DNA from: a virus
Lineage: Duplodnaviria > Caudoviricetes
Length of the DNA stretch: 57,674 nucleotides
Strand: one strand, 5' to 3'
Virus record (IMG/VR): IMGVR_UViG_3300023198_000698
Span: 1-57,674 of that record
A model generated the notes under the pieces. That model was not told the origin of the DNA and ran no database searches. It worked only from the letters and a program-made list of their open reading frames with translations. Each line of letters opens with the position of its first letter. The stretch's first letter is position 1. Below, piece after piece: positions 7,729 to 52,397 of the stretch. Made by a program: the position numbers and the translations under genes.

Positions 7729-7770
7729 GTATTGCCTTTCGTTGTCGGCTGTCAGTAGCCGTTCCTTATG

Positions 7771-7797
7771 TTATCGGCAGATCCTGGAAATACTTTA
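7771..7797 (-). promoter_or_regulatory. Sigma-28/FliA-type promoter
   Basis: Minus strand TAAA-N15-GCCGATAA, perfect consensus; the -35 TAA is the upstream stop codon. Confidence 0.8.
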
Positions 7798-9986: not shown

Positions 9987-10013
9987 ATATCGGACGGTAT
10001 CGGAAAAACTCAA
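9987..10013 (-). promoter_or_regulatory. Sigma-28-type promoter variant upstream of the SSB gene
   Basis: TTGA-GTTTT...(N15)-TCCGATAT. Confidence 0.55.
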
Positions 10014-38490: not shown

Positions 38491-38569
38491 GGGTTTTGTG
38501 GATCGTTTATCTAGTGAAGCCTCCCCTGATCCGTGCTGATCAGATCAGGGGAGTGCGGCTTGCGTTGTG

Positions 38570-39040: not shown

Positions 39041-39046
39041 GGAATT

Positions 39047-39658
39047 TTATCTGTTTCGTTCGTCTTCCTTGGTGGTTTGGTCCTGTAAAATCGGTTCGCG
39101 GCCGCCGTAGCGGTAAACCAAGGCTCGGATGAAGCTCTCCTTCTTCTGCTGCAGGACCTCGGACTTGAATTGTCCGCAGTATCCTTGACGGTCGACATGG
39201 CTCCCGTCCTTGAACATATAACACCATGCGCCAGGGTGGTAGGTCGGCGTCCCGGGCTTCTGGACGTGATCGCAGGCATGGCAGATGCCGTGCCCAACGG
39301 CGGTCGATGCGTAGTGCTCCTTCTCCATGTCGTCCTTGCAGCCGTCGCAGATCCCTTGAGTCTCCCCGGGTGGCAGCTTGGCCCCCGGGAAACACCATGA
39401 GCAGCGGCAGTCTACGACCTCAAAGTCTGCTCCGTCGCTGGCTTCGCATAGCCGGCGCCAAGCGTCCCCGACGTCGATCTGGGTCGTGGTGCCCTCTTCG
39501 AGGTTGCGCTCGACCCAGTCCATCGCGAGATCGGTCAGGTCCGACCGGACGGTCCGGAGGGTCATGATCGGCTGGTATTCGGCGTTCCCGTGTCGGTCGG
39601 TCGTGAGCCGGCGGATAGAGTAGGTCCGCCCGGGTCCCATTGATTGGCTAGCCTTCAT
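39047..39658 (-). CDS. Cys-rich (Zn-finger) hypothetical protein
   Basis: CSWC, CDGC, CHAC and further Cys. Confidence 0.65.
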   Translation of the reverse strand: MKASQSMGPGRTYSIRRLTTDRHGNAEYQPIMTLRTVRSDLTDLAMDWVERNLEEGTTTQIDVGDAWRRLCEASDGADFEVVDCRCSWCFPGAKLPPGETQGICDGCKDDMEKEHYASTAVGHGICHACDHVQKPGTPTYHPGAWCYMFKDGSHVDRQGYCGQFKSEVLQQKKESFIRALVYRYGGREPILQDQTTKEDERNR

Positions 39659-39860
39659 GTTGTCCTTTCTGTCCGTTCATTATTGCTTGCATTGCCTTCT
39701 TGACCTTTGGGTCTTCCGGGTCCGCCTTCGCGGCGTCCAGGATGTGCATTCCTGCCGACATGTGCGCCCTGTATCTTGCGCCGTTGTCGAGTGTTTCATT
39801 TCTGGCGATAGCGTAGTCCATTCTCGCCATTTGTAAAGAGTGGGAAGCGGCTGGGTTCAT
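39648..39860 (-). CDS. Hypothetical protein
   Basis: 70 aa with AAGGA SD. Confidence 0.6.
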   Translation of the reverse strand: MNPAASHSLQMARMDYAIARNETLDNGARYRAHMSAGMHILDAAKADPEDPKVKKAMQAIMNGQKGQHEG

Positions 39861-39867
39861 GGTTCCT

Positions 39868-40299
39868 TTATCCTGCGATCGCCTTCGCGAGCGCGATCGT
39901 TTCCGGGTCGTTGGTTACGTCTTCCGGGTTGTGCATCGTGGGTGATAACGTGACCTGCAGCGTTCCGGGTTTTACCCCGTAAGCTCCAGCCTTGGCGGCT
40001 AGGAACTGCCTGAGGTGATTGGCGGATCGGATCTCCTTCGACGTCTTGCCCAGGTCTTCGGTCCTGAAGACGATCCGGACCTTGTCCCAGGAGACGGTCA
40101 GGTTGAATGTCTGATCCGCGAGCGGGTCCCGCGGCTTCGGTGGCGCCGGCGCCTTGTAGCCGATCGCGTCCCGCGCCTGCTCCAGTGCCTTCGGGTCGTG
40201 CTGCTCCAGGAAGGCGCGGGTGTGCGGCGTGAGGATCAGGACCTCGATCGCCTTCTTCATCTTCCGGCGTTGTGCTTCTCTTGCTTCGGTGGTTTTCAT
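39868..40299 (-). CDS. Hypothetical protein
   Basis: 143-aa ORF. Confidence 0.65.
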   Translation of the reverse strand: MKTTEAREAQRRKMKKAIEVLILTPHTRAFLEQHDPKALEQARDAIGYKAPAPPKPRDPLADQTFNLTVSWDKVRIVFRTEDLGKTSKEIRSANHLRQFLAAKAGAYGVKPGTLQVTLSPTMHNPEDVTNDPETIALAKAIAG

Positions 40300-40336
40300 G
40301 ATCTGATATTGGTTGAGTGTTTTCGTTTGATTCGGT

Positions 40337-40975
40337 TTAGCTTCGGCCTTCTTCGCGGACTAGCCGACCGTATTCGGTCAGGTGCCAATGCTTGGAGGTT
40401 AGCCGGATGCGGGGGATCTGGTGAAGGCTGACAGGTTTTTTGTCGCCTTCCACTAGGTAAGCCTTCCACGTTCCGCGGGTTGAGTGGTTGTAGGTGACTC
40501 GGGTGTAAAGTCTCGCGCCGTCGTGTCGGGTGGCTTCGTGCATGTAAGTGTAGCGGCCGAGGCTGGCGCTCTGCTCGGCGGTCAGGTCTACGTTCGGCGC
40601 GTCTTTGAGCGCGAGCCGCTGCTTCTCATGGGGGACCGCGGCCGGCCGCTTGACTGAGTTGCACTCAATTACGACTTCCACATGGGAGATTACGAGGCCC
40701 TTAAACGCATTGGCGGCGGTCTCTTCGAACCACATGGCTCCGGGTTGGAAGGTCTTCAGGCCCTCGATCACGGCGTCCACAGTGGCGGCTGCGGCGATGT
40801 CGTGGCAGATCTGGACGAAGGCCGCATTCTCCGGATGCTTGGCGGCGTCGTTCGTGAAGGTATCCTGGAGGGCGCCGTTCGCGGCTTGGAAAGCCTTCAG
40901 GAGGGCCATATTCCCGCGGTGTCCGTGGGTGGCGAGTGTTTCGACTGCTTGCTTCAGGTATTGTGTGCTATTCAT
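40337..40975 (-). CDS. Hypothetical protein
   Basis: 212 aa with its own promoter and GGAGA SD. Confidence 0.75.
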   Translation of the reverse strand: MNSTQYLKQAVETLATHGHRGNMALLKAFQAANGALQDTFTNDAAKHPENAAFVQICHDIAAAATVDAVIEGLKTFQPGAMWFEETAANAFKGLVISHVEVVIECNSVKRPAAVPHEKQRLALKDAPNVDLTAEQSASLGRYTYMHEATRHDGARLYTRVTYNHSTRGTWKAYLVEGDKKPVSLHQIPRIRLTSKHWHLTEYGRLVREEGRS

Positions 40976-41023
40976 GATCTTTTTCTCCGTCGTTCGTTTG
41001 TTTCGTTTTCCGTCTCTGGTTTA

Positions 41024-41050
41024 CTATCGGCAGATCCCGGCAGGACTTTA
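41024..41050 (-). promoter_or_regulatory. Sigma-28-type promoter
   Basis: TAAA-N15-GCCGATAG. Confidence 0.8.
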
Positions 41051-41311
41051 GTCGGCCGGCGTCCAGTGTTGGAGCTTCATCCCGCGGTAGGCGATCCCGT
41101 AGGCTCGGCGGATGCCTTCCCGGTGTCCGACGCGGAGCGTGATGTCCGTCGCCTCGAGCTCCTCTTTCAGGGATGCCAGGACATGCTCCAGGACTTGCGC
41201 CGTGGTCCGCTGCTTCAGCTCGAAGATGGAAGCGTCCACCGTTCCGAGGCGAATCGCGAAGTGAAGCGCCTTCTCCCAGGGGGCTGAATTGTCTAAGTCT
41301 ATTCGTTTCAT
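41048..41311 (-). CDS. Hypothetical protein
   Basis: 87 aa; CGGAGACAAGATCATG start module. Confidence 0.7.
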   Translation of the reverse strand: MKRIDLDNSAPWEKALHFAIRLGTVDASIFELKQRTTAQVLEHVLASLKEELEATDITLRVGHREGIRRAYGIAYRGMKLQHWTPAD

Positions 41312-41327
41312 GATCTTGTCTCCGTGG

Positions 41328-41639
41328 TTATTCGGCTGTCAGGCCGAGGTTTTCGTCTTCCCATCCGTTCGCGATCGCGTCAACCATGCTGCAGAGGTGG
41401 CTGTTCAGAGCTGATTTGGCTGCGTCCGCGTTGTAAAATCTAGTTGCGTTGTAGCTCGGTCCCGGCTTCGTGATCGGCGCGGTCCTCATGATCGCCGCCC
41501 GGACCTTCCGGACCTGCGGCAGGGTGACCCCGTGAGCCTCGGCGGTGAGGCCGATCATCTGCCGGTCTTCGATCCCGCCTTCGACGAGATCCTTCGCGAT
41601 CGCCGCCGCCTTCGTCCGATTCATTGTCTTCGCTCTCAT
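41328..41639 (-). CDS. Hypothetical protein, possible HTH
   Basis: 103-aa ORF. Confidence 0.6.
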   Translation of the reverse strand: MRAKTMNRTKAAAIAKDLVEGGIEDRQMIGLTAEAHGVTLPQVRKVRAAIMRTAPITKPGPSYNATRFYNADAAKSALNSHLCSMVDAIANGWEDENLGLTAE

Positions 41640-41650
41640 GGGGGCCTCGG

Positions 41651-41752
41651 TTACAGGATCGCCAGGACAACGAAGCCGATCCCGATGATCGTTCCGATGA
41701 TTAGGGTCAGATTCGCCTTCGCGGCTTCGAGCAGGTCTTCGGTTCGGTTCAT
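41651..41752 (-). CDS. 33-aa single-TM peptide (not in the ORF track)
   Basis: MNRTEDLLEAAKANLTLIIGTIIGIGFVVLAIL directly under the promoter at 41798. Confidence 0.6.
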   Translation of the reverse strand: MNRTEDLLEAAKANLTLIIGTIIGIGFVVLAIL

Positions 41753-41797
41753 GTCGTTCTTTCGGTTCGGTCGTTTCGTTATCCGTCTCTGGTTATG

Positions 41798-41824
41798 TTA
41801 TCGGCAGGCCGGCGGGGAACTTTA
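41798..41824 (-). promoter_or_regulatory. Sigma-28-type promoter
   Basis: TAAAGTT...(N15)-GCCGATAA, perfect consensus. Confidence 0.85.
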
Positions 41825-41845
41825 GCCCCCGCCTGCCGTTTTTCT

Positions 41846-42097
41846 TTACCGGACCCCGATCCATTCGTAGGTGGCCAGATCCATGTCGCGGAGGACGTCG
41901 TAGCTCGGGACGATCGCTACGTTCCCGGCCTCGACTTGGGAGGCGAGGAAGAGGACGAGGGCGGTCGCTCGGGGACCTTGGCAGGCGCCGACATGGCGCT
42001 GGAGGCGTTCGAGGCTGATAAAGGGATGCTTCTTGATGGTCGCGATGATTTTTGCGTTCATGATCTTGTCTCCGGTTTTTTCGTTGTTCTCGTTCAC
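41846..42097 (-). CDS. Hypothetical protein (GTG 42097 or ATG 42061)
   Basis: Own promoter and repeated SD module. Confidence 0.7.
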   Translation of the reverse strand: MNENNEKTGDKIMNAKIIATIKKHPFISLERLQRHVGACQGPRATALVLFLASQVEAGNVAIVPSYDVLRDMDLATYEWIGVR

Positions 42098-42104
42098 ACC
42101 TATA

Positions 42105-42131
42105 ATATCGGCAGGACCGCTGGGAACTTTA
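42105..42131 (-). promoter_or_regulatory. Sigma-28-type promoter
   Basis: TAAA-N15-GCCGATAT. Confidence 0.82.
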
Positions 42132-42157
42132 GCGTCCCCGCAGGTCCTTGATTTGTA

Positions 42158-42376
42158 TCAGCTTAGCTCGCGAGCTTTGAGGGTGACGGGGCCGTCTTGG
42201 CGGTCGTATCCGGATCGTTCCAGGTCGCGGCGAGCGAGCTTGACGGCGTCGGCCTTGGTGGCGGCTTCGTATTCGTCCACGCTCGGCTGCTCATGGAGGG
42301 CGGGGAACTTCGCGGTGATCGTGACTTCGTAGCGTTTCATCTGTTTTCCTTCGGTTTTTTCGATTGTTCCGTTCAC
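42158..42376 (-). CDS. Hypothetical protein (GTG 42376 or ATG 42340)
   Basis: Own promoter. Confidence 0.7.
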   Translation of the reverse strand: MNGTIEKTEGKQMKRYEVTITAKFPALHEQPSVDEYEAATKADAVKLARRDLERSGYDRQDGPVTLKARELS

Positions 42377-42383
42377 GCTTATA

Positions 42384-42410
42384 CTATCGGCAGATCCGCG
42401 GGAGACTTTA
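42384..42410 (-). promoter_or_regulatory. Sigma-28-type promoter
   Basis: TAAA-N15-GCCGATAG. Confidence 0.82.
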
Positions 42411-42442
42411 GCGCCTCCCGCAGGCCCCTGCCTTTGAAGATC

Positions 42443-42697
42443 TTAGGCGGCTTCGCCGGCCAGCGTCCCGGCTTCCTCGGCGTTCCGCAGGTAGGCGCGG
42501 ATGTCGGAGATGTTCACATATCCGTCGAGGCGGTCGCCGCATCGGAATTTAGAGCTTGCGAGGTGGCTGCGGAGGTCGTCGAGGCCCTGCTTCACGGCGG
42601 CGAGTTCTTTTTTGGCGGCGGCGGCTTCGAGCTGGAGGCGTTTGATGTAGTTCATCTTGTTTCCTTCGGTCTTCGGTGTTTCGTTTATTCCGTTCAC
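42443..42697 (-). CDS. Hypothetical protein (GTG 42697 or ATG 42655)
   Basis: Own promoter. Confidence 0.7.
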   Translation of the reverse strand: MNGINETPKTEGNKMNYIKRLQLEAAAAKKELAAVKQGLDDLRSHLASSKFRCGDRLDGYVNISDIRAYLRNAEEAGTLAGEAA

Positions 42698-42704
42698 ACC
42701 TATA

Positions 42705-42731
42705 CCATCGGAAGAACTCCGCGGAACTTTA
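42705..42731 (-). promoter_or_regulatory. Sigma-28-type promoter
   Basis: TAAA-N15-TCCGATGG. Confidence 0.72.
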
Positions 42732-42739
42732 GCCTGATT

Positions 42740-44143
42740 TTAATCTTCTCGGAAGTGCTTCTGCCAGAGGCGTCCCAGGACCTCGATCGCGAGGCTCCCC
42801 TGCTTCGCCTTGCCTTCTCCGTCGATCAGCCGGCCGGCGAGGGCGCCCTTGGCCAGGACGCAGCGGTCGACCTCCTCGTCCACGGAGAACATCCGCGGCC
42901 ATATCGCCGTCACTGGATTGAATTGTCCTGCTCGGTGGGCGCGGTCCTCCGCCTGCTCGGCGTCCGCCAGGGTCCAGGGGCGATCGACAAGGATGATGTA
43001 GGACGCCCGGGTGAGGTTCAGGCCGACGCCGCCGGCGTAGGTGAAGGAGACCGCCTTCGATGCGCCATCCTGGAAGCCGTCCACGATCTCCTGCCGGCGC
43101 TTCTTGGTGGTCTCCCCGGTGAAGATCGGGACGCGGAGGCTGGCGCCGATCGTCTCCGCGGTCTCGATGTAGGCCGAGAACAGAAGGACGGAGTGTCCTT
43201 GCCCGATCAGGTCTTGAGCCAGGGTGACGACGTGCGGGACCTTCCAGGCCGAGCAGAGCATCCGGGTTTGCGAGAGCGCGGTGATCGCCAGGGTCCCCGG
43301 GTCTCCGCCTTCCTCCGCCTTCTCTCTGGCGTCGTCGATCGCCCGGGAGAGTGCTCGCCTGTAGTCCACCGCCTCCTCTTGGCTCGGCTCGATCTCTAGG
43401 ATCTGGCGCGTCTTCGGTGGCAGGTCCAGGCAATCCTTCTTCAGCCGGCGGATCGTAAACGGCGCCATGATGCCGTGAAGCTCCTCGATGTTTGTCGCTC
43501 CGGAGTTCTCCCAGAAGTGAATCGTCTTCCCGGTTTTCTTCTGAATCTTCCGCAGGTGGCCGGCGCAATAACGCTTGTCGTAGTCGGTTGATCGGTCGGC
43601 GATCTCATGTCCGAGAGCGCGGAGGATCGGGAACAGCTCACGCGCTCTGCCGTTCCGGGTCGGTGTTCCGGAGACCGCGAAGACTGCGGCAGCATGTTTC
43701 GCCCAATCCAGGAACCGCTTCGTCCGGACGGACTTCATGGACTGGATCTGCTGGACTTCGTCCCCTACCAGAACGAACGGGAAGTCTCCGCCGAACATCT
43801 CGAACATCGGCTCCGGGATGCTGGCCCAGGAGAACGTCGAGACGCGGACCCCGACGATCCGGGCCTCTCGCTGCCAGTTCGTTGTCAGGCTCGCGGGACA
43901 CGCGACGAAGACGGGGAGGTTCATCCATCGCTGGATCTCCAAGCAAGCCAGCAGGACGGAGCGCGTCTTGCCGGTCCCCATCTCGGATGCGAGCAGGATT
44001 CGGCCGTCTCGGAGCATCTGCTCGGCGTCCTCGATCTGGTGGGCGAACGGCTTGGAGCCGTCCTTGAATTCGAAGCCGTGGAGGCCGGCGGTCTCGATCA
44101 GGTTCCAGCGGCTCCACTCTTTGCGGCGTTCTTCGAAGGTCAT
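42740..44143 (-). CDS. SNF2-family helicase
   Basis: EMGTGKT, GDEVQ, SGTP, GVGLNLT, QAEDRAHRAGQ; ATG overlaps the vWA gene TGA. Confidence 0.9.
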   Translation of the reverse strand: MTFEERRKEWSRWNLIETAGLHGFEFKDGSKPFAHQIEDAEQMLRDGRILLASEMGTGKTRSVLLACLEIQRWMNLPVFVACPASLTTNWQREARIVGVRVSTFSWASIPEPMFEMFGGDFPFVLVGDEVQQIQSMKSVRTKRFLDWAKHAAAVFAVSGTPTRNGRARELFPILRALGHEIADRSTDYDKRYCAGHLRKIQKKTGKTIHFWENSGATNIEELHGIMAPFTIRRLKKDCLDLPPKTRQILEIEPSQEEAVDYRRALSRAIDDAREKAEEGGDPGTLAITALSQTRMLCSAWKVPHVVTLAQDLIGQGHSVLLFSAYIETAETIGASLRVPIFTGETTKKRRQEIVDGFQDGASKAVSFTYAGGVGLNLTRASYIILVDRPWTLADAEQAEDRAHRAGQFNPVTAIWPRMFSVDEEVDRCVLAKGALAGRLIDGEGKAKQGSLAIEVLGRLWQKHFRED

Positions 44144-45546
44144 TCCACCGCCTCCAGGCAGGTCCCGAAGTTCGGCTTGCCGTAGCGCCAGTCGTGCTGC
44201 GCGGTCTTGACCCAGAAGCAAGGGACGCCAGGGTTCACGACGGCCGTCATGGGGAGATACATGTCCGAGATCACGATCACCCAGGCCCACTCTTTCGCGC
44301 CGGCTTGGTAGCCGATCTGAGTCAGGGCGGGATTCAGGTCCGTCCCGCCGCGTCCATACCATTCGGTCGGGACCTTGATCGGGAAGTCCGCCGCGGTGAA
44401 CTTCTTCTCTTCGCCGACGATCCGCGTGTCGCACTGGATCAGACTGATCTCTGCGCCGGCGAATTCGCGGACGATCTCTTCGATCCGGGCGAGGGTGCTG
44501 TCCATCTCTTTCGCGGACATGCTACCGGACGTATCGACGAGGACGACGCCCTTCCCATTATTCCGATCGACGTTCGACGGCATGATCACGTCCGAGCGCC
44601 AGGAGGACTTCCGGTTCGCCCGGGAGTAGCTCTGGCCATCGTCGCCGAGTTCCTGCATGAGGTTCTTCAGGTGGTGGAACCACTGGACGCGGTTCTTGGA
44701 GGCGAGCGCCTGCTGCATTTGCTTGGCCCAACCGGGCGAATTGCCGGCCATCTCCGCCGCCAGGATACCCTCGGAGACGATCTCTTCCCAGGTCTGCTCC
44801 GCCTGCTGGACTTCCTCAGGCTTGACTTCGAGGACTTCGCCGACGTCGCCTTCTCCCGCGGTGGCCGGATCGAAGGTCTTTTCGCCTTTGTTTTCGCCCT
44901 GCTCGCTGCCGGGATTCGATTCTCCGCCACTTTGATCGGGTGAGCTGCTAGATCCATCGTCTTTTTGATCGGGATCGCTCTCCGTCGATTCTCCGGACTC
45001 TCCGGGATAGCCGTCTTTATCGTCGAGCTGATCGCCTTCGCCCTGCTCGCCGGCGTCCGATTTGTCCTCTGACTTGTCTTCCGACTTGTCCTGCTCCTGC
45101 TGGCTCTTCTGGAGTTCCTTCAGGTAGAATTCGGCGTCCTTGTTGATCGGCAGCTCGGCGAACGATCCCATCCCCGGGAAGCATCCCAGAGCGCGGAGGC
45201 GATCAGGGCAGCGGCCCTGTATCAGCCAGTTAGCGGCGAGGTCGAAAGCTTGGTTCCGGATCTCCTTGTCGGCGCCGAGGCATCGGAAGTGATGGCCGAG
45301 GAAAACATGAGCGGCTTCGTGAAGGACGACCCAAGCGGCTTCTTCGTTCGTCATCCAGTCCACGAAGGAGCGGTTCCAGAACAGCTCTCCGCCGTTCGTC
45401 GTCATCGTGTCGGTGATCTTGTTGTCTTCGCGGACCGTCCACTGGGCGCGGACAGAGGTGAAGCAGGGGAAGTCTTCGATCAGGCGGTCGAGCGCCCGGG
45501 TGATCTTCGTCTCTGCCTTCGTGATCGTGATTTTGTTTCCGTTCAT
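44140..45546 (-). CDS. Metallopeptidase-vWA protein (DUF2201-like)
   Basis: HEAAH..GH, acidic linker, MIDAS DTSGS, GRGGTD, ISD; ATG at the predicted +1. Confidence 0.88.
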   Translation of the reverse strand: MNGNKITITKAETKITRALDRLIEDFPCFTSVRAQWTVREDNKITDTMTTNGGELFWNRSFVDWMTNEEAAWVVLHEAAHVFLGHHFRCLGADKEIRNQAFDLAANWLIQGRCPDRLRALGCFPGMGSFAELPINKDAEFYLKELQKSQQEQDKSEDKSEDKSDAGEQGEGDQLDDKDGYPGESGESTESDPDQKDDGSSSSPDQSGGESNPGSEQGENKGEKTFDPATAGEGDVGEVLEVKPEEVQQAEQTWEEIVSEGILAAEMAGNSPGWAKQMQQALASKNRVQWFHHLKNLMQELGDDGQSYSRANRKSSWRSDVIMPSNVDRNNGKGVVLVDTSGSMSAKEMDSTLARIEEIVREFAGAEISLIQCDTRIVGEEKKFTAADFPIKVPTEWYGRGGTDLNPALTQIGYQAGAKEWAWVIVISDMYLPMTAVVNPGVPCFWVKTAQHDWRYGKPNFGTCLEAVE

Positions 45547-45553
45547 GGTAGTA

Positions 45554-45580
45554 ATATCGGCGCGGCAGCGGAAAACTTCA
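45554..45580 (-). promoter_or_regulatory. Sigma-28-type promoter (leaderless ATG)
   Basis: TGAAGTTT...(N15)-GCCGATAT. Confidence 0.75.
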
Positions 45581-45626
45581 CCTTTTATTGTCAGAAATTT
45601 GTGCCTCTTTTTCTGACATTGAGTGT

Positions 45627-45980
45627 CTACTTTTTGGACAGCTCTCGGAGCGCGGCTTCTAGCTGGTTCACCGCCTCGGACAGGGTCCCGGGCAGCGCCT
45701 GAGAATGCCGGCGTCCGGATCGCGGCGGCGGGATCTCCATCTCGATCGTCTCGATCGCCGACCTGATCAGACCCTCGGCGGTGGGCGGCGGGGTGGTGAT
45801 GTGGCTCGCGACCCAAGCCTTGCAGTCCCGGAGCGTCGTCCGGTCATGCAGCGGCTTGCATTCGGCGCCCTGGAAAACTGCGTAGCAACGGACATGGTCG
45901 TCGCTCAGATTCACGATGCAGATGTCCGGATAGGCCGACGACCTCCAAGCGGTCGGGGTAGTCTTTTTCCATGTTGCCAT
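45627..45980 (-). CDS. Hypothetical protein
   Basis: 117 aa; TAATG coupling. Confidence 0.65.
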   Translation of the reverse strand: MATWKKTTPTAWRSSAYPDICIVNLSDDHVRCYAVFQGAECKPLHDRTTLRDCKAWVASHITTPPPTAEGLIRSAIETIEMEIPPPRSGRRHSQALPGTLSEAVNQLEAALRELSKK

Positions 45981-46564
45981 TATTCGGCCTCCTGGACTTC
46001 GCGGATCGCCTTCAGGACCTTCGCGAGGTTCTTGTTGTTCACTTGGACGGAGACGATCGACTCGCCAGACGTCGGCTGCATGTCAACCTTGACCGCGTGA
46101 GCCGGGAAGAAGACGGAGTCGCCCCTGTTCTCGGTGTCCGCGATCTCCGGGAAGACTTTCCCGATGATCGCCGTCCGCTCTCGGAGGCGGAAGCTGGCCT
46201 GCTTCTCCAGGGTCTCCCGGTTGTGCATGTCGAGGGTCAAGCGGTCGAAGTTCTGGGCGAACTCTCTGGCGATCTTGAATGTCTTTTCGTCTGTAACCTT
46301 CCGGATCTTGCGGAGACCTCCGCGGCCGTAGCTCTTGCGCCATTCGATCTCTGCGGTGTCGCTGATGTGGTTCCAGCGGACGGCGATCAGCTCGCGGACA
46401 TGGCGACCGAAGGAGCCGCTCTTCTCCAGGGTGACGAAGCCCCGGGGGATCTTGGTCCCTTTGTTAGCGATCATCTCGGGCTGGCCGGACGGCATGTAGC
46501 CTTTAACGGTGTTCGCGATCTGGTCGATGATGCTGTTCACTGTTTTGATCTGGTCTAGGTTCAT
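45980..46564 (-). CDS. Hypothetical protein (MNLDQIK...)
   Basis: Start reassigned to 46564 after an A-rich leader. Confidence 0.7.
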   Translation of the reverse strand: MNLDQIKTVNSIIDQIANTVKGYMPSGQPEMIANKGTKIPRGFVTLEKSGSFGRHVRELIAVRWNHISDTAEIEWRKSYGRGGLRKIRKVTDEKTFKIAREFAQNFDRLTLDMHNRETLEKQASFRLRERTAIIGKVFPEIADTENRGDSVFFPAHAVKVDMQPTSGESIVSVQVNNKNLAKVLKAIREVQEAE

Positions 46565-46629
46565 GGTCTTTTCTTTCTTGGTTGGGGAAGGGAGGCTTCC
46601 TTGCCTGCCCTTCCCGGGTTGGGCAGTTC

Positions 46630-47541
46630 TTAGAATTGGAAATTGTCGAGTTCGTCGATCGTGTCGGCGGCGACCTGCTTCACTTCGTTCCGGACCGTCC
46701 GGGACTCGCGGACCGCGTCCGGGTTCATCGCGCCGAACTTGTCGCTGATCCGCTTCAGGGTCTCGTCGAGCTTCACGGAGCCGACGACGTTCAGGCCCTG
46801 CATCTCGTCGCACAATTCCCAGACGTTTGTCAGGAGGCTATCCTTAAAATGCTTGTCGGTGTTCGGCTGATTGCACTCTTCCAGCTTCTTGACGACGTGG
46901 GCGAGCTTCTTGGAGACCCGGGCGAGAACGTCGCGCTGGGATTCGAAGAGCTGCTCTCGGACGGAGGCTTCCTGGCTGGCTTTGATCTTCTCGACTTCTT
47001 CGGCCGGAAGCGAGGCGAGGCGGATGTCGGAGGCGCGGGAGACCGCGGAGGTCCGGACGTTGAAGCGGAACTTGCCGGCGAAGCCAGCCTTGTCCGGGAA
47101 GTTGACTTCCGGGGTGAGACCGTTCAGGCGCTTGTGGACCTTCGCGGCGATCTCGTCGTAGCGGCCGACCGCGGCTTGAACGGCGTCTTCGAACTTCGCC
47201 TTCGCGACTTCGAGCGCGTCCTTGGTTTTCAGGTAGCGGCCGACGGGGACCAAGCGCATCCCGTTATCTTCCCACGGGAGGCTGCTCCCGATCCAGACGG
47301 CTCTCGCTTCGCTGCGAGCTGCCATGATGTCCTTACGGTCGGCGGGGTCCATCGCTTTCAGGACCGTCGAGATCGCGTCTTCGTCGGCGCCGTGAGTCGC
47401 TGCGGCTTCCTTGGAAAGCTTGTCGCATTTGACGTTGCCGGCGTAGGTTCCGACGCTGAGCTTGACTAGGACGCATTGTTCGCTGATGTCTTTTGTTTGG
47501 TTCATGATCTTGTCTCCGTTCTTTGTTTGGTTTTCCGTCAC
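46630..47541 (-). CDS. Helical protein typical of AAA/vWA loci (DUF3150-like)
   Basis: SLPWEDNGMRLVP..Y; own promoter. Confidence 0.65.
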   Translation of the reverse strand: MTENQTKNGDKIMNQTKDISEQCVLVKLSVGTYAGNVKCDKLSKEAAATHGADEDAISTVLKAMDPADRKDIMAARSEARAVWIGSSLPWEDNGMRLVPVGRYLKTKDALEVAKAKFEDAVQAAVGRYDEIAAKVHKRLNGLTPEVNFPDKAGFAGKFRFNVRTSAVSRASDIRLASLPAEEVEKIKASQEASVREQLFESQRDVLARVSKKLAHVVKKLEECNQPNTDKHFKDSLLTNVWELCDEMQGLNVVGSVKLDETLKRISDKFGAMNPDAVRESRTVRNEVKQVAADTIDELDNFQF

Positions 47542-47548
47542 TGGTTTA

Positions 47549-47575
47549 CTATCGGCTAATCTGCTGAAAGCTTTA
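47549..47575 (-). promoter_or_regulatory. Sigma-28-type promoter
   Basis: TAAA-N15-GCCGATAG. Confidence 0.82.
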
Positions 47576-47579
47576 GGAT

Positions 47580-47789
47580 TTATTCGCTTGCCCAGTCGAT
47601 CACCGCGTTCGCGTCTGCCGTGTGCCTCGCCGCCGAGGTCTGGGTCGCGACGATCTGCTTTGCGCTGCTCTTCGCGAATTGGGCGAGCTGTCCGCCTTTG
47701 AAGGTGATCAGGAGCGCCACTGCGAGGAGGAGGATCGAGCCGGTTTTTTTCATCTTGCTGCTTTCGTTTTTTTCGTTGTTTCCGTTCAC
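47580..47789 (-). CDS. Small secreted or membrane protein
   Basis: MKKTGSILLLAVALLITF signal-like sequence from ATG 47753. Confidence 0.65.
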   Translation of the reverse strand: MNGNNEKNESSKMKKTGSILLLAVALLITFKGGQLAQFAKSSAKQIVATQTSAARHTADANAVIDWASE

Positions 47790-47796
47790 AGTAATA

Positions 47797-47823
47797 ATAT
47801 CGGCCAGATCTGGCTATTCTTTA
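47797..47823 (-). promoter_or_regulatory. Sigma-28-type promoter
   Basis: TAAA-N15-GCCGATAT. Confidence 0.82.
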
Positions 47824-48101
47824 GGGTTTTTCTCTCTTTTCTCGTAAGTGCCTGATCCGGTGAGGTTTGTCTGGAAGACTCCAGGAACGCCTTCCCAGGT
47901 CGCTTTGCAGTCAGGGCAGGAGCAAGGCTCGATCCGCTTGGCGGCGGCTCGGAGGTCCGCCCGGGTCCATTCGTGGAGCGCGTGGACGCCGTCGCAGGCC
48001 CAGCCGGTCTTCAGGTTCGCCCAGAAGCCGTCGCCGGTTCCGGCCTCGCTCCAGACCTCGGAGATCCGGGGATCTTTTCGGAGCTGTTCGAGTATGGTCA
48101 T
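47814..48101 (-). CDS. Hypothetical protein with CxCxxC
   Basis: 95 aa; GAAAGG SD. Confidence 0.65.
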   Translation of the reverse strand: MTILEQLRKDPRISEVWSEAGTGDGFWANLKTGWACDGVHALHEWTRADLRAAAKRIEPCSCPDCKATWEGVPGVFQTNLTGSGTYEKREKNPKE

Positions 48102-48181
48102 GTTGCGCCTTTCGATTTAAAGGGTCCGGGAGGAGGAGGACGGAGAGGCCTCCCTCCCTCCCGGCAGCAGGCGTCCGCGGA

Positions 48182-49210
48182 TCAGGCGGCTCGCTTGCCT
48201 TCCCAGATTTGATACTCGGTCGTCGCGACGATCTCAGGGCAAGCCTTGGCGAGCTGCCGGATGAAGAAGGAGGCTTGCTCGGTCGCCCAGCGCATCGCGT
48301 AGGTCAGGAACTTCTTGGCCTTCGTCGGCGTCTCTTTCGCCTTGCGGACGAGGAAGAGCGAGAGCGCGAACGTCACGTCCACCTTGTCGGGTAGTCTGCA
48401 GCCGGCCGGATCTTTCAGGATCTCGTCTTCGGTCGGCGCGTTCTTCCAGATCTTCACCCATCCCATGAATTCGTTCGCGGCTTCGCTGCCGACGCAGCCG
48501 GCGACCACTGCGCGGATGATATCGCCGACCGGGAAGTTCACCGTCTCGCTGATCTGGTGAAGCGTGTCGGCCATCTCCCAGGTCCGCTTCGTGACGCTGC
48601 CAAGCTCGATCATCTCGCCGCCGGCGGGACCGTTCCAGACGTCGTTCCGATACTGCGCGAAGGCTCGCATTGCGGGAGAGATCCCGGCGTCTTCGGCCCA
48701 GCTATCCCAAGCTTCCAGGGCCTGCTCGGAGTCGGTTTCCATGTAGATGTGAACCATCCGCGAAGCGGCAGCTTTGGACATCATGTTCGTCCCGACGTCG
48801 GTCGCCTGATTGCCGGCGATCACCATCCGGGCGCCGGATTTGATCTTGCGGCCGAAGACTTGGCGGTCGAGGACGATCTGGAGGCTCATGTTCTGAACCT
48901 GCATCTTGGCGCGGTCGTATTCGTCCAGGAAGACGATCGACTTCTCGTCGTCGGCGCCGATGCCTTGGAAGGGGATCAGGTCCGTCATGAGATACTTCAG
49001 GCGCTCGCCGTCCGGGAACGGGATCGCGAAGTCCGAAGGCTCCTTGTCACCCAGGCGGACGTCGTAAAGGTTCCATTTGAGGCGCTTCGCGATCTGCGCG
49101 ACGATCGCCGACTTGCCGGTTCCAGGTTTGCACCAGACCGCGACGGGGATGTTTGCCTTCAGGCAGAGGGCGATCGCTCGGGCGGTTTGTTCTTGGTTCA
49201 GTTTTTGCAT
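48182..49210 (-). CDS. AAA+ ATPase (MoxR/AAA_5-like)
   Basis: Walker A PGTGKS, Walker B VFLDEYDRA, IAGN, SRM, KRTWE. Confidence 0.9.
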   Translation of the reverse strand: MQKLNQEQTARAIALCLKANIPVAVWCKPGTGKSAIVAQIAKRLKWNLYDVRLGDKEPSDFAIPFPDGERLKYLMTDLIPFQGIGADDEKSIVFLDEYDRAKMQVQNMSLQIVLDRQVFGRKIKSGARMVIAGNQATDVGTNMMSKAAASRMVHIYMETDSEQALEAWDSWAEDAGISPAMRAFAQYRNDVWNGPAGGEMIELGSVTKRTWEMADTLHQISETVNFPVGDIIRAVVAGCVGSEAANEFMGWVKIWKNAPTEDEILKDPAGCRLPDKVDVTFALSLFLVRKAKETPTKAKKFLTYAMRWATEQASFFIRQLAKACPEIVATTEYQIWEGKRAA

Positions 49211-49255
49211 GATCTTGTCTCCGTTTCGTTGTTTCGTTGTCCGTCTCTGCTTAAG

Positions 49256-49282
49256 CTATCGGCATCCTTGCCGAAAGCTTGA
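49256..49282 (-). promoter_or_regulatory. Sigma-28-type promoter
   Basis: TCAA-N15-GCCGATAG. Confidence 0.78.
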
Positions 49283-49296
49283 GATGTTTTTTCTGA

Positions 49297-49695
49297 TTAA
49301 TGATCTCCCGCGGGACCCTTGCGATAGCCAATGCTGCGGACTTCGAACTGTATCGTCCCCGGGATCTGGGTCACTGTCGCGACCGTCGCGGTCATGAATT
49401 CGATTGCTGCCAGGACGATCTCGATCTCTCCGACCAAGATGTTCGCGAAGATCGGGGCCTTCCAGTCGGCCGGATTGGCGACCGCGGTGAAGGCAGTCTT
49501 CAGGGCGCCGACCGTGAACTTGCCGCAGGTCTGCGCGTTCATCTCGGCGGCTTGCGCGGCGTCCAGCTCACGATAGAGGCGTTCCAGTCTTTCGGTGGCT
49601 CCGCAGACCCCGCCGGCGTCCAGGACTTGGGAGGCGGCGTAGCGGTTCTGGTTCTCGATCTCGATCTGCTTTTTGATTTGTTCGGTTTTGGTCAT
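49297..49695 (-). CDS. Hypothetical protein
   Basis: 132 aa; own promoter and SD module. Confidence 0.72.
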   Translation of the reverse strand: MTKTEQIKKQIEIENQNRYAASQVLDAGGVCGATERLERLYRELDAAQAAEMNAQTCGKFTVGALKTAFTAVANPADWKAPIFANILVGEIEIVLAAIEFMTATVATVTQIPGTIQFEVRSIGYRKGPAGDH

Positions 49696-49740
49696 GATCT
49701 TGTCTCCGGTTTTTGTTCTTGTTTCCCGTCTCTGGTTATA

Positions 49741-49767
49741 ACATCGGCAGGCCCCAAGATTACTTTA
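49741..49767 (-). promoter_or_regulatory. Sigma-28-type promoter
   Basis: TAAA-N15-GCCGATGT. Confidence 0.8.
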
Positions 49768-49786
49768 GGCCCACCGTGAGATTTGT

Positions 49787-49975
49787 TTAGGCAATGCGAT
49801 CGAGGATCGCGACCGAGGACCTGATCCGGGACGCTTCGGCGGCGAGGTCGTCGATCTTGCGGAGCAGGGCTCCGGTGCCTTGTTGGTGACGGCCGCAGGC
49901 GATGTTCGCCGCGTGGTGAGTCTTCCGTAGTTCCGCTTTGATCTCTTCGAGTCTGTTTTCGAGCTGGCTTTTCAT
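49787..49975 (-). CDS. Hypothetical protein
   Basis: 62 aa; own promoter. Confidence 0.68.
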   Translation of the reverse strand: MKSQLENRLEEIKAELRKTHHAANIACGRHQQGTGALLRKIDDLAAEASRIRSSVAILDRIA

Positions 49976-50020
49976 CGTTTTTCCTTCGGTTCGTCGTTTC
50001 GTTTCCCGTCTCTGGTGGTA

Positions 50021-50048
50021 ACATCGGTAGCTTCTGGCGAAAGCTTTA
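50021..50048 (-). promoter_or_regulatory. Sigma-28-type promoter
   Basis: TAAA-N16-ACCGATGT. Confidence 0.68.
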
Positions 50049-50051
50049 GGA

Positions 50052-50300
50052 TTATTTCACCCATTCGGCGCCGGCGGTCGTTAGCTTGTTTCCGGCCCAG
50101 CCGTCCGTCACCGTGTATTCGATGATTCCAGCCTCACGGAGTTCGGCGAGCGCGGCCTTCGTGGTGGGGCGGAGGTTCGGGGCCTTGACCCAGCCGGTCC
50201 CGTGCGCGTTGTCGTGGGCGGTGGCGAGGATCGCTTGCTGGGTTTTATTGAGCTTTTTCATCTTTTTGCCTTCGGTCTTCGTTGTCTCGTTCTCTGTCAC
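50052..50300 (-). CDS. Small winged-helix-like protein (GTG 50300 or ATG 50261)
   Basis: KLNKTQQAIL...LAELREAGII...LTTAG. Confidence 0.65.
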   Translation of the reverse strand: MTENETTKTEGKKMKKLNKTQQAILATAHDNAHGTGWVKAPNLRPTTKAALAELREAGIIEYTVTDGWAGNKLTTAGAEWVK

Positions 50301-50307
50301 TGGTTTA

Positions 50308-50334
50308 ATATCGGCAGCTTCTGGCGAGACCTGA
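50308..50334 (-). promoter_or_regulatory. Sigma-28-type promoter
   Basis: TCAG-N15-GCCGATAT. Confidence 0.7.
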
Positions 50335-50348
50335 AGGATTATTTCAGA

Positions 50349-50591
50349 TTATTCGACCCCGCTGAATCCGCCGCCCTTGACCTCGGACCTCATGGCTGCT
50401 GTGCTGGCGAGATCGGTGGCCTTCCAGGTCCTCCATTCCTGCTCTGCCGCGGCCTTCGTTTCCTTGGGTTCCCCTACGGTCCATCCCATCGACCGATCGA
50501 CGGCGAACCATTTTCCGGTCTTGGGATGCTTCGCCGTGCTGGGAGTCAGCTCTGCGGCTATTGCTTTGGCTTTTTCGAAGAGTGCGTTCAT
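50349..50591 (-). CDS. Hypothetical protein
   Basis: 80 aa; AAGGAAAGGA SD. Confidence 0.68.
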   Translation of the reverse strand: MNALFEKAKAIAAELTPSTAKHPKTGKWFAVDRSMGWTVGEPKETKAAAEQEWRTWKATDLASTAAMRSEVKGGGFSGVE

Positions 50592-50604
50592 GGGTTCCTT
50601 TCCT

Positions 50605-50736
50605 TTAGTGCTTTTTGAGTTCGCGGACGATCCCGGCCCAATGCCACTTGACCTTGTGGTCGAGGGCGAGGCAGTAGGTGTGTAGGATGATTCTCCCCGT
50701 CCGGGTCGTCGCCAGTTTTGATTTTATCGCTCTCAC
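50605..50736 (-). CDS. 43-aa leaderless basic peptide
   Basis: GTG at the predicted +1 of the 50744 promoter, in frame to the stop at 50605. Confidence 0.5.
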   Translation of the reverse strand: MRAIKSKLATTRTGRIILHTYCLALDHKVKWHWAGIVRELKKH

Positions 50737-50743
50737 GATAATA

Positions 50744-50770
50744 CCATCGGCATCCCGCAGAAAAACTTCA
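50744..50770 (-). promoter_or_regulatory. Sigma-28-type promoter
   Basis: TGAAGTTT...(N15)-GCCGATGG. Confidence 0.72.
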
Positions 50771-50951
50771 GGAGTTTTTTTCACTTTCCCCGGTGTCCAT
50801 TGTTGAGACAGTTCCTGTCCCAAAAGTAGACCTGGATTCCGGGAGTGCAAGATGGAAGCGTGAGAAGCTGCAGGAAGGGGGCGCCGGCGCGCCCAGGCTC
50901 GCCAGGAGACGCCGGCCGACCGTCTGAAGGGGATCAGGGCAGGCGGACCGC

Positions 50952-51185
50952 TTAAAGCCTCCTGAGTGATCCGTCCGGACGCCATTGGTAGGCGCGTCCG
51001 TCGTGCATCTTGAAGGGTTTAGCGGAATCGGATGGAATCCCGTTATGGAAGCCGGCGCGATGCAGTAGGGCGAACCTGGACGGAATCTGCCGGTGGAGTC
51101 CAGGGGCGCGGTCCGCCCGGAAGCGGCTGCGGATCGGGGCGCCTTTGTCTGGCGTGAATATCGGGTGATAGTGTGATGCTTTCAT
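50952..51185 (-). CDS. Hypothetical basic protein
   Basis: 77 aa; GAAAGG SD. Confidence 0.55.
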   Translation of the reverse strand: MKASHYHPIFTPDKGAPIRSRFRADRAPGLHRQIPSRFALLHRAGFHNGIPSDSAKPFKMHDGRAYQWRPDGSLRRL

Positions 51186-51198
51186 GGTGTGCCTTTCG

Positions 51199-51744
51199 TT
51201 ATGTTGAGATCGGATTGAGGAAGGAGAAGCTGATCAGCTCCTGCCCTGTCCCGGTAAAGTTCGTGAAGGTCTCCGTCCCCAGGCTGAACGGGATCGACTT
51301 CCGGCCGGCGTTCTGCTCTTCCCACTGGGAAAGGAGCCGGTATGGAATCCAGACGACCTTCGGCGGGGTGTCGTGTTTTGCGTGGAATGCTTTGGGGCGA
51401 AACTCCCAGAGGACCCCGGAGATCGCGCCGGCCCAGTACCAGAGCGCCAGGGACTCGAACTGCTTCGTGGTGAGTCCGGACTTCTTGACCTTGAAGCCGA
51501 GGCGCGGCTCCGCGGTGCTCTTCGCCTCGATCCAGATCGCCCTCCCATCGACGACGCGGGTCCCGGTGTAGTCCAGGCAGTCGTTCCGGAGCTGGATCAC
51601 GACCGGCTTCCCTCCGATCCGGATCACCTTGGTCGGCGGCTCGATCTTGCGGAGGACGATGATCCGGTTCATCTCCGCCCAGCCGGCGGAGAGGTCTATC
51701 CGGCGCTCGAAGTCTTGCCCGGGGGTTTGTGGCTTAGTCTTCAT
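51199..51744 (-). CDS. recU: RecU-like Holliday junction resolvase
   Basis: G..FE..I, LRKIEPP, DYTG...WIEAKST, Q...L. Confidence 0.78.
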   Translation of the reverse strand: MKTKPQTPGQDFERRIDLSAGWAEMNRIIVLRKIEPPTKVIRIGGKPVVIQLRNDCLDYTGTRVVDGRAIWIEAKSTAEPRLGFKVKKSGLTTKQFESLALWYWAGAISGVLWEFRPKAFHAKHDTPPKVVWIPYRLLSQWEEQNAGRKSIPFSLGTETFTNFTGTGQELISFSFLNPIST

Positions 51745-51982
51745 GGCGCGGATTGACGTTCACGATCTTCGGCGGGACGAGCTTTTCCATTGTTGCCGCG
51801 ATGTCCCCGAGGATCTCAACTTGCTTGCTGTGCCTGTCGAGTGATTCCCGCCAGAAGGCTTTGATCTCTTCGCGGCTTTGCTTGTCCTTGAGTTGGACCG
51901 CCAGCGCGACCATGCAGACGGTCGCAACTGCTCCGCCAATGAAGGCCGCTCCGCAAAGGAAGCTTAGGATGATTGTGTTCAT
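51734..51982 (-). CDS. Small membrane protein
   Basis: N-terminal TM helix. Confidence 0.6.
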   Translation of the reverse strand: MNTIILSFLCGAAFIGGAVATVCMVALAVQLKDKQSREEIKAFWRESLDRHSKQVEILGDIAATMEKLVPPKIVNVNPRHED

Positions 51983-51986
51983 GTTT

Positions 51987-52385
51987 TCATTTTTCTTTCG
52001 GTTTGCTGTTCCATCCGCCTTCTTCGGCGATTAATCCTTCGGCCCTCGCTGCGGTCGGGTTCCTTCCGATCCACTCATGGCAGGCGAAGCAGACCGCGGC
52101 GAAGAAGTCCTGATTGTGGAGGAGGTCCCCGATCCTGCCTCGCTTGTGGTGAATGTGCTCGCTCTTCTTGGCCCAGCATCGTTCGCAGATCGGGTGAGTC
52201 TTCAGATATCGCCGCTTCTCCCTTGCGTAGAGCGTGAGGTTCGCCTTCCGCGCCTTCGAGACCGGACTGATCCGCTTCTTCTTGGAGGCGCCGGCGGGGC
52301 GAGCTGTCTTCGGGCGTTCCTTTCGGGTTTTCCACCCATTCGGCTTCGTCCCGCCGGCTAAAGTTGTCCAGAGCGCGTTCCCCAT
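51987..52385 (-). CDS. HNH-like nuclease (NinG-like)
   Basis: CERC..EHIHH.RGR...AVCFACH. Confidence 0.72.
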   Translation of the reverse strand: MGNALWTTLAGGTKPNGWKTRKERPKTARPAGASKKKRISPVSKARKANLTLYAREKRRYLKTHPICERCWAKKSEHIHHKRGRIGDLLHNQDFFAAVCFACHEWIGRNPTAARAEGLIAEEGGWNSKPKEK

Positions 52386-52397
52386 GTCGCCAATCTA

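Follow-up and report, generated by a model that had tools for sequence, protein, structure and literature searches.

The first genes that a phage expresses are usually transcribed through the primary sigma factor of the host, through sigma factors encoded by the phage or through phage RNA polymerases. In T7 (promoters A1-A3), T5 and lambda, the early promoters are read by the unmodified host RNA polymerase via the primary sigma factor, and phage-encoded sigma cascades have been described in SPO1, with gp28 and gp34, and in T4, with gp55. In flagellated bacteria, the sigma factor FliA is freed once its anti-sigma factor FlgM has been exported, which constitutes the flagellar checkpoint. The FliA consensus, as quoted in an excerpt of PMC7286023, is TAAAGTTT-N11-GCCGATAA. 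The closest published concept found for the arrangement discussed here, judging from an excerpt of PMC9437464, comes from alphaproteobacterial phages that bind pili or flagella and in which CtrA-binding sites are clustered; the authors interpret this as phages keeping watch on the state of their host. The subject of this analysis is the viral record IMGVR_UViG_3300023198_000698 of IMG/VR, which was analysed in its entirety (57,674 bp, listed as linear and 71% complete by the CheckV estimate; hereafter, the window) and carries an array of candidate sigma-28-class promoters placed in front of non-structural genes.

The degenerate pattern proposed in a first-pass annotation of this DNA, with a spacer of 15 nucleotides (N15), has 15 matches in the window, all on the minus strand, against a chance expectation of 1.01 (standard deviation 1.04, largest value 5) obtained from 100 dinucleotide-preserving shuffles, 0/100 of which reached 15 matches. 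The array described in that annotation is confirmed, as 12 of its 13 array sites and the site at 7,772 are among these matches, and the 13th site (50,022-50,048) does have the 16-nt spacer ascribed to it; the coordinates given here lie 1 nt above the earlier ones, which counted a trailing N. Fourteen strong copies of the form CTAAAG-N14-GCCGAT(A/G) are found on the minus strand at 41.0-50.8 kb and at 7.8 kb, together with a weaker copy at 9,988. The phage consensus can be written CTAAAGTtt...cTGCCGATA, and seven copies in the 57.7-kb window have the strict form TAAAG-N14-GCCGATA. A position-weight matrix built from the 13 N15 copies scores these at 24.1-39.2 bits and the best other site on either strand at 13.8 bits, and the high scores of the copies are partly circular because the matrix derives from the same 13 copies, the gap being of more weight than the absolute scores. 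The matches at 54,166 and 55,886 were attributed to chance, since both fall within open reading frames (ORFs), lack a leader and reach less than 8 bits. The site at 9,988, which had been counted as a further copy, closely follows a T-run and is located in an intergenic gap of 101 nt, but its sequence, TTGAG...TCCGATA, misfits the pattern that was noted and reaches only 12.0 bits.

Among the 14 strong copies, the T, A and G of T-N-A-R-G and the whole of CCGAT are invariant, and a G precedes CCGAT in 12 of the 14. The spacer from TAAA to GCCGATAA is N15 in 13 of these copies and N16 in one, and its sequence varies. Every copy lies on the coding strand. The window scan found no strong copy between 10.1 and 41.0 kb, where the packaging, head and tail genes are located, in agreement with the earlier remark that the structural genes are not preceded by the motif.

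The phage motif has the same blocks and the same spacing as the FliA consensus in the excerpt mentioned above (PMC7286023), and the proposal that it represents a repeated sigma-28-class promoter, made from the letters alone, is supported by the two blocks, their spacing, the strand and the location ahead of genes, as far as that excerpt goes. A consensus scan for sigma-70-like sites (TTGACA-N16-18-TATAAT-like) found 0 in 38,000-57,674 vs 2.8 expected, and the conserved phage blocks do not fall on the sigma-70 hexamer positions. Promoters for a T7-like single-subunit RNA polymerase were considered and rejected, as the motif is bipartite with a free spacer and not contiguous over ~20 bp; all ORFs of at least 500 amino acids (aa) are otherwise assigned (tail protein, tape measure, head morphogenesis, primase/helicase, SNF2, DUF2201, portal) and none is an RNA polymerase, this being a statement about the assignments, with no RNA polymerase profile run. 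At the level of sequence, the elements pass every test of the sigma-28 (FliA/SigD/WhiG) promoter class, to which they very probably belong. They share their two blocks and spacing with the late flagellar promoters of bacteria, and the variants seen in the phage also stand before flagellin, fliS and cheW in FliA-encoding Verrucomicrobiota genomes. They differ from these promoters in number, as the phage packs 14-15 copies, seven of them strict, into 57.7 kb, compared with 0-6 strict copies per multi-megabase genome, and also in setting, as the phage copies precede non-flagellar genes, the majority without a known function, and each is fused to a shared T-poor leader.

The conserved unit is longer than the two blocks. 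When aligned, the copies form a cassette that reads C-TAAAG-T-(pyrimidine-rich)...c-TGCCGAT(A/G)-n-TA-n-n-n-n-R-(T/A)-GA(A)CGG-A/C-rich...GGAG or GAAGG...ATG and that is repeated as a unit of up to 83 nt (repeat families D1-D5). The first-pass observation that the copies sit just upstream of genes is borne out by an ATG preceded by a Shine-Dalgarno (SD) sequence, GGAG or GAAGG, at 43-50 nt after CCGAT(A/G) in 11 of the 14 strong copies, the other three having an ATG at +8 (45,555), a 33-codon ORF at +46 (41,799) or the next ORF at +153 (50,745); the labels "early" and "replication" that were given to the array genes are presumptive. The 12 leaders measured are 35-42 nt long and consist of 50% A, 20% C, 26% G and 4% T, vs 24% A and 16% T strand-wide, and they fold less well than shuffled versions of themselves (mean z +0.83). 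No paralogy was found among the downstream proteins, with a sole blastp match that is marginal (E 0.004) and involves a doubtful ORF. The unit of regulation is thus conserved while the genes behind it differ, a pattern that speaks for selection acting on the cassette rather than for recent whole-gene duplication. Two GGA motifs are present in 8 of the 12 leaders; control by CsrA was considered on this account and set aside, as composition alone predicts ~1.3 GGA per leader and one GGA is that of the SD sequence, so that the count is not evidence for it.

The -10 block of sigma-28 promoters is numbered so that it ends at about -8. With GCCGATAN as the -10 block in this numbering, transcription is predicted to start at a conserved purine that lies 9 nt below the last base of CCGAT(A/G) (Table 1), and a naive ORF finder set "starts" (GTG or ATG) at precisely this distance in several copies. 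For the copy at 45,555, the predicted +1 (45546, minus strand) coincides with the A of an ATG that is the sole usable in-frame start of the DUF2201 gene and has no SD sequence, and ACC is found where the sister cassettes have their ATG. These two features point to a leaderless mRNA and fit the predicted start; the DUF2201/VWA transcript, a single case, may therefore be leaderless. Four copies (42,385; 42,106; 41,799; 49,742) overlap a strong GC-rich hairpin (down to -32 kcal/mol) whose loop takes in the -35 block. Many stop codons of this genome are followed by GC-rich hairpins that lack a T-run, and we infer that the cassette hairpins would be 3'-end or terminator-like structures which overlap the next promoter where genes are tightly packed.

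Table 1. Promoter copies, genes, hairpins and gene blocks of the window; the predicted start is the low coordinate of CCGAT(A/G) minus 9
Feature	Coordinates	Strand	Promoter blocks	Predicted start	Context
Promoter	50745..50770	(-)	TGAAG-N14-GCCGATG	50736	28.6 bits; in 3' part of ORF 50605-50985; next ORF 153 nt downstream
Cassette	50262..50334	(-)	TCAGG-N14-GCCGATA (50309-50334)	50300	39-nt leader, then ATG of 69-aa ORF (50052-50261)
Cassette	49976..50048	(-)	TAAAG-N15-ACCGATG (50022-50048)	50013	16-nt spacer; leader, then ATG of 62-aa ORF (49787-49975)
Cassette	49696..49767	(-)	TAAAG-N14-GCCGATG (49742-49767)	49733	Leader with GGAGACAAGATC, then ATG of 132-aa ORF (49297-49695)
Cassette	49211..49282	(-)	TCAAG-N14-GCCGATA (49257-49282)	49248	Leader, then MoxR-like AAA ATPase gene (48182-49210)
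Cassette	47754..47823	(-)	TAAAG-N14-GCCGATA (47798-47823)	47789	Leader, then 57-aa hydrophobic ORF (47580-47753)
Cassette	47506..47575	(-)	TAAAG-N14-GCCGATA (47550-47575)	47541	Leader, then 291-aa ORF (46630-47505)
Promoter	45544..45580	(-)	TGAAG-N14-GCCGATA (45555-45580)	45546	ATG of DUF2201/VWA gene (44140-45546) 8 nt past -10 box
Cassette	42656..42731	(-)	TAAAG-N14-TCCGATG (42706-42731)	42697	Leader, then 70-aa ORF (42443-42655)
Cassette	42341..42410	(-)	TAAAG-N14-GCCGATA (42385-42410)	42376	Leader, then 60-aa ORF (42158-42340); hairpin -32 kcal/mol
Cassette	42062..42131	(-)	TAAAG-N14-GCCGATA (42106-42131)	42097	Leader, then 71-aa ORF (41846-42061); hairpin at -35
Cassette	41753..41824	(-)	TAAAG-N14-GCCGATA (41799-41824)	41790	Leader, then 33-codon hydrophobic ORF (41651-41752), then 103-aa ORF; hairpin at -35
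Cassette	40976..41050	(-)	TAAAG-N14-GCCGATA (41025-41050)	41016	41-nt leader, then 212-aa ORF (40337-40975); last before packaging/structural genes
Weak copy	9988..10013	(-)	TTGAG-N14-TCCGATA		12.0 bits; after T-run, 101-nt gap before 323-aa ORF (8999-9970)
Cassette	7729..7797	(-)	TAAAG-N14-GCCGATA (7772-7797)	7763	38.4 bits; different leader, then 125-aa ORF (7351-7728)
5'-open coiled-coil ORF	56377-57672				431 aa read, no stop upstream; runs off contig end
MoxR-like AAA ATPase	48182-49210	(-)			Among largest array-driven genes
DUF2201 metallopeptidase-like/VWA protein	44140-45546	(-)			Among largest array-driven genes
SNF2-family helicase	42740-44143	(-)			Among largest array-driven genes; ATG overlaps stop of preceding VWA gene
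Primase/helicase gene	3436-5394				Downstream of 7,772 and 9,988 copies, outside main array
Metallophosphoesterase, DNA-repair exonuclease type	72-1154				Opposite contig end from coiled-coil ORF
Four cassette hairpins	42385-42430, 42106-42150, 41799-41840, 49742-49790
Other post-stop hairpins	29700-29760, 8930-8990, 46570-46625, 48110-48175, 6350-6400, 2380-2430
Gene block	57.6-51 kb				dATP/dGTP-diphosphohydrolase N-terminal domain protein, DUF5131 protein, KH-domain protein, HNH endonuclease, RecU-like resolvase
Gene block	50.8-41 kb				Promoter array, many small ORFs, MoxR-like AAA ATPase, DUF2201/VWA protein, SNF2 helicase
Gene block	38-13 kb				Helix-turn-helix protein, large terminase, portal, head-morphogenesis protein, scaffold, SPP1-type major capsid protein, tape measure, central tail protein
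Gene block (last transcribed)	10-0 kb				Two further promoter copies, iteron-like repeats, primase/helicase, metallophosphoesterase

The arrangement would be best explained by sigma-28-class promoters built into reusable cassettes that are placed before unrelated genes. Each cassette would consist of a C-TAAAG -35 block, a variable spacer, a (T)GCCGAT(A/G) -10 block, a short AT-rich stretch and a purine start, followed by the A-rich, almost T-free and weakly folded leader of 35-42 nt, the GGAG or GAAGG and the ATG. The cassettes would drive non-structural genes, namely the small ORFs and those for the AAA ATPase, the VWA/DUF2201 protein and the SNF2 helicase, with the copies at 7,772 and 9,988 covering the block that leads to the primase/helicase. 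The reader would be the host's own sigma-28 holoenzyme, and expression would therefore need free FliA, that is, a flagellated cell from which FlgM has been exported. It seems fairly probable that the promoters are read in this manner and that the non-structural genes would be expressed only where FliA is free. It is also possible that the array titrates sigma-28 and that this phage binds to the flagellum.

With regard to the host, an alignment of the portal protein identified 42 related-portal loci in species-representative genomes, 40 of the 42 being in metagenome-assembled genomes of Verrucomicrobiota and the best showing 56% identity (G007). The nearest portal homologue, P0002, has 59% identity, and for the major capsid protein a locus in G010 shows 59% identity. 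The head genes have their closest counterparts in prophages of Verrucomicrobiota genomes. We infer that the host would be a flagellated member of Verrucomicrobiota. FliA passes the curated cut-off in G007 and G010 (227 and 260 bits) and does not in G006, G008 and G009, and the counts of the strict motif in the five portal-related genomes are 3, 3, 1, 0 and 0. One strict copy in G010 stands before a small ORF that is followed by fliS (Pfam E 6e-33), 14 kb from fliA, and one in G007 (TAAAGTCTTTCCCCGGCCTGCCGATA) stands before cheW (Pfam E 1.5e-36). Furthermore, four of the seven flagellin-family loci of these two genomes have TAAAG or TCAAG-N14/15-(G/A)CCGAT(A/G) at 75-170 nt upstream, and the phage copies share the TAAAG/TCAAG wobble with these flagellin promoters. 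The 89-aa ORF before fliS in G010 is FlgM-like by position and has no Pfam hit. On contig 8 of G007, fliA, csrA, three flagellin-family genes and the cheW promoter are found within ~75 kb, and csrA lies inside the flagellar clusters of both genomes (G010 C165 3288-4016, directly upstream of a flagellin gene; G007 C8 100177-143536).

At the level of the phylum, 102 of the 301 Verrucomicrobiota genomes sampled have at least one strict match, with a maximum of 6 per genome, and a reversed-pattern control gave counts of the same order. In a hand tally, a strict match was present in 21/36 genomes with a FliA-type hit vs 81/265 others. This rarity and the placement of the copies indicate that the motif is a rare flagellum-associated signal in the phylum and not a housekeeping promoter, and the caveat in the first-pass annotation that it might be the routine promoter of the host lineage does not apply to the probable host phylum.

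Similar arrays are also present in other viral contigs. A scan of a viral collection for CTAAAGT-N12-TGCCGATA returned at least 120 stretches and, among the matches listed, 10/120 stretches have at least three loose matches on the same strand. On inspection, at least seven distinct contigs carry arrays, namely G001/L304, G002/L243, G003, G004/L045, G005/L214, L326 and L234; L288 and L305 are one and the same contig (G003), and the copies in L236 are like those of L304. L281 was not counted as a phage array, since it looks like divergent cellular flagellar promoters. The array contigs, with a GC content of 33-47%, carry same-strand promoters of the TAAAGTTTTT...TGCCGATAAG type, with an A-rich upstream stretch and an SD sequence and ATG 20-50 nt downstream of each copy, and the motif is unchanged across viral contigs of 33% to 60% GC. 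Two of these genomes are complete with direct terminal repeats: G002 (87,126 bp) has six good copies at 0.8-9.5 kb, and G003 (60,009 bp) has five copies at 54.5-59 kb and at 526, in both cases all in one direction and at one genome end. A TTGAC(A) element lies inside the spacer of some copies in G003 and, in part, in G002, which hints at overlapping promoters of two classes. The AAA ATPase is the sole protein that the array contigs have in common with the window (26% identity; G002 15620-16438).

Other searches returned little. A cassette pattern gave 7 stretches in the viral collection, which were counted as chance because they are single matches in low-GC contigs without arrays, and the 68 matches to a 16-mer spanning the start codon are likewise single, none forming an array. 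No relative of the AAA ATPase was found in the viral collection. The portal has one locus there, at 37% identity, and another search returned relatives at 41-44%. Megablast against a phage collection found nothing for the array region of the window, nor for G002 and G003.

Several findings weigh against a host sigma-28 holoenzyme as the reader, or against the host lineage proposed for it. The host assignment is one made from head genes only, and the nearest cultured relatives of the large terminase are phages of marine Alphaproteobacteria, at ~41% identity. FliA passes the cut-off in only 33 of the 301 Verrucomicrobiota genomes, no early-gene homologues were found in the 42 genome loci, and a comparison of 17.7 kb of the window with the 301 genomes gave no DNA match of the prophage type or of the CRISPR (clustered regularly interspaced short palindromic repeats) type, the matches obtained being short ones at the level expected by chance and a conserved part of SNF2 (69-76% identity). 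Moreover, the 122 related-portal loci (80 metagenome, 42 genome; ~1.37 Mb), the nearest accessible relatives, have no array. Arrays are found in unrelated contigs but not in these loci, and the trait thus appears to be scattered among unrelated phages rather than inherited with the head module. With regard to the reader itself, the contig, which is ~71% complete, is broken inside a gene, and a phage sigma gene could be present in the missing sequence; profile searches overlook phage sigma factors that are very divergent, and most ORFs of the window have no family assignment. Some array-bearing phages, moreover, carry sigma-related proteins, as follows from two cases. In G003, a 212-aa protein encoded between the DnaB and ThyX genes (46021-46659; L337 6021-6659, minus strand), ~8 kb downstream of the array, matches Sigma70_r4_2 at 32.6 bits, over the cut-off, and has no region 2, while in G001 an 85-aa ORF has a region-4 match of 27.9 bits. 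The G003 protein has a second, weaker helix-turn-helix and may be a late regulator or a partial sigma.

These last points lend themselves to the alternative that survives best, in which the sigma-28-type promoters would be read by a phage-encoded sigma factor, either a FliA-like protein whose gene falls outside the assembled part or a divergent protein encoded by one of the unassigned ORFs. There would then be a phage-internal cascade, and expression would not report the motility state of the host. Such cascades are well known, those of SPO1 and T4 also having repeated non-sigma-70 promoters that mark a temporal class of phage genes, and the 57.6-51 kb block, which has no cassette, must be transcribed from somewhere upstream. 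However, the known cascades use a phage-specific consensus together with a phage sigma gene, whereas here the consensus is that of cellular sigma-28 and six-frame searches of the window with PF04545 (Sigma70_r4), PF04542 (Sigma70_r2), TIGR02479 (FliA_WhiG) and TIGR02937 (sigma70-ECF) found nothing over the cut-off, as the first-pass annotation had held. The best sub-cut-off matches were 15.8 bits in the helix-turn-helix protein beside the large terminase and 12.4 bits inside the AAA ATPase. Two ORFs of the cassette-free block were checked against a protein atlas as hidden sigma factors and rejected, one (176 aa) being KhpA-like with an RNA-binding KH domain and the other (154 aa) having weak matches only (0.86), to Verrucomicrobiota clusters. 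In addition, the complete 87-kb G002 has its array at the genome end and no hit to PF04542, PF04545 or TIGR02937, and both complete genomes have their arrays where the first-expressed genes are expected, a position which would need a host-supplied reader unless a protein is injected. The exact cellular consensus and the wobble seen in the flagellin promoters of G007 are what the reuse of a host factor predicts, and the region-4 protein of G003 has the position and the lack of region 2 described above. A phage-encoded reader is therefore regarded as unlikely, though it deserves to be kept in view.

A second alternative is that the motif is read by the host primary sigma, either because the housekeeping consensus is unusual or because the TA-rich bases after CCGATA are the real -10 element. 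A TATAA-like stretch does follow CCGATA in many copies, both in the window and in other contigs, TTGAC(A) occurs inside the spacer of some G002 and G003 copies, and the promoter consensus sequences of Verrucomicrobiota are poorly studied. The -35 element would, however, fall in the variable spacer, leaving the conserved TAAAG and GCCGAT without a role, and the lack of sigma-70-type sites in 38,000-57,674, the presence of the same motif in viral contigs of such different GC content, the 0-6 strict copies per genome at the level of the reversed-pattern control and their distribution between genomes with and without a FliA-type hit all speak against it, so that this alternative is improbable. Still less probable is that the repeats are not promoters but sites bound by a regulator of the phage, or else the edges of a mobile or duplicated module, since, despite the four copies that overlap strong inverted repeats and the repetition of the cassette as a unit, the motif is bipartite with a spacer fixed in length and free in sequence, has one orientation and a fixed distance to SD and ATG in all copies, is identical to the one before flagellin, fliS and cheW genes, and has hairpins in only 4/15 copies, like the GC-rich hairpins after many stop codons here. 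Both of these readings fit the data poorly.

Compared with the early arrays of T7, T5 and lambda, the sigma-28-class cassettes show the same layout of several strong, similar promoters in one orientation before the first-expressed genes, at the genome end in G002 and G003; the difference lies in the sigma factor, which is the primary one in those phages, whereas the array region here has no sigma-70-type site. The similarity to the phages with CtrA sites, as far as the excerpt of PMC9437464 describes them, consists in dense, promoter-associated copies of a host signal linked to motility or the cell cycle, with independent origins in several lineages. In that system, the site of a response regulator is added to promoters, whereas here the promoter itself would belong to an alternative-sigma class. 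Further differences concern the factor and the host phylum, and those phages are described as binding pili or flagella (PMC9437464), which for the present phage would be no more than a possibility. No description of sigma-28 promoters in a phage was found in open-access papers and preprints, supplements excluded. The promoter class itself is known; its setting is new, and the genomic signature that it leaves recurs.

Tentatively, and with less than even confidence, the use of the flagellar sigma for first-phase transcription might be a recurrent, undescribed strategy of unrelated phages (33-60% GC), in which arrays stand ahead of non-structural genes, and at the genome end in complete genomes, expression is licensed by the flagellar checkpoint and the sites may draw sigma-28 from the flagellar and chemotaxis genes of the host. 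If this were true, productive infection would occur only in cells that build or carry flagella, and the host range, timing and dormancy of infection would be linked to bacterial behaviour; this would suit flagellum-binding phages especially, as the receptor itself would signal a permissive cell state. The presence of arrays in several unrelated viral contigs suggests a general signature that can be searched for in phage genomes and that could predict a host trait (motile, FliA-encoding) for uncultivated phages. Since the sigma-28 consensus is conserved across phyla, the cassettes can be tested in standard laboratory strains with fliA and flgM mutants, and the compact promoter-plus-leader cassette could be a natural portable module for sigma-28-dependent expression.

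Nearly all genes of the window lie on the minus strand, and its gene content and order indicate that the phage is an uncultivated siphovirus, for which no close cultured relative was found. The contig ends have no overlap and share no 14-mer, the break falling inside a gene. The central tail protein has only 22-24% matches in the phage collection, and the 343-aa protein that follows it, where a clue to the receptor was sought, has no match there. The genes for the AAA ATPase, the DUF2201/VWA protein and the SNF2 helicase lie within ~6.5 kb on one strand, with other ORFs separating the first two. The 7729..7797 cassette is upstream of the iteron-like repeats and of the primase/helicase gene; in the gap upstream of the latter, at 5906-5995, four head-to-tail copies of a unit containing TTTTCCGAATGTTGG (plus-strand reading) follow each other ~22-23 nt apart, and these repeats, which resemble iterons, may be a replication origin or an operator array. 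In the cassette-free block, a 434-aa protein with a dATP/dGTP diphosphohydrolase N-terminal domain (E 1e-18) adjoins a DUF5131 protein (E 1e-55) at 54004-56371, and the pair may form a nucleotide-pool or DNA-modification module. A 523-nt gap in the simple ORF list, at 16791-17313 on the minus strand, reads through by eye as a cysteine/histidine cell-wall-hydrolase-like sequence, and it may encode a tail-associated lysin with an unusual start. Finally, the coding strand is rich in A over T across the whole window, with a plus-strand AT skew of -0.2 to -0.3.

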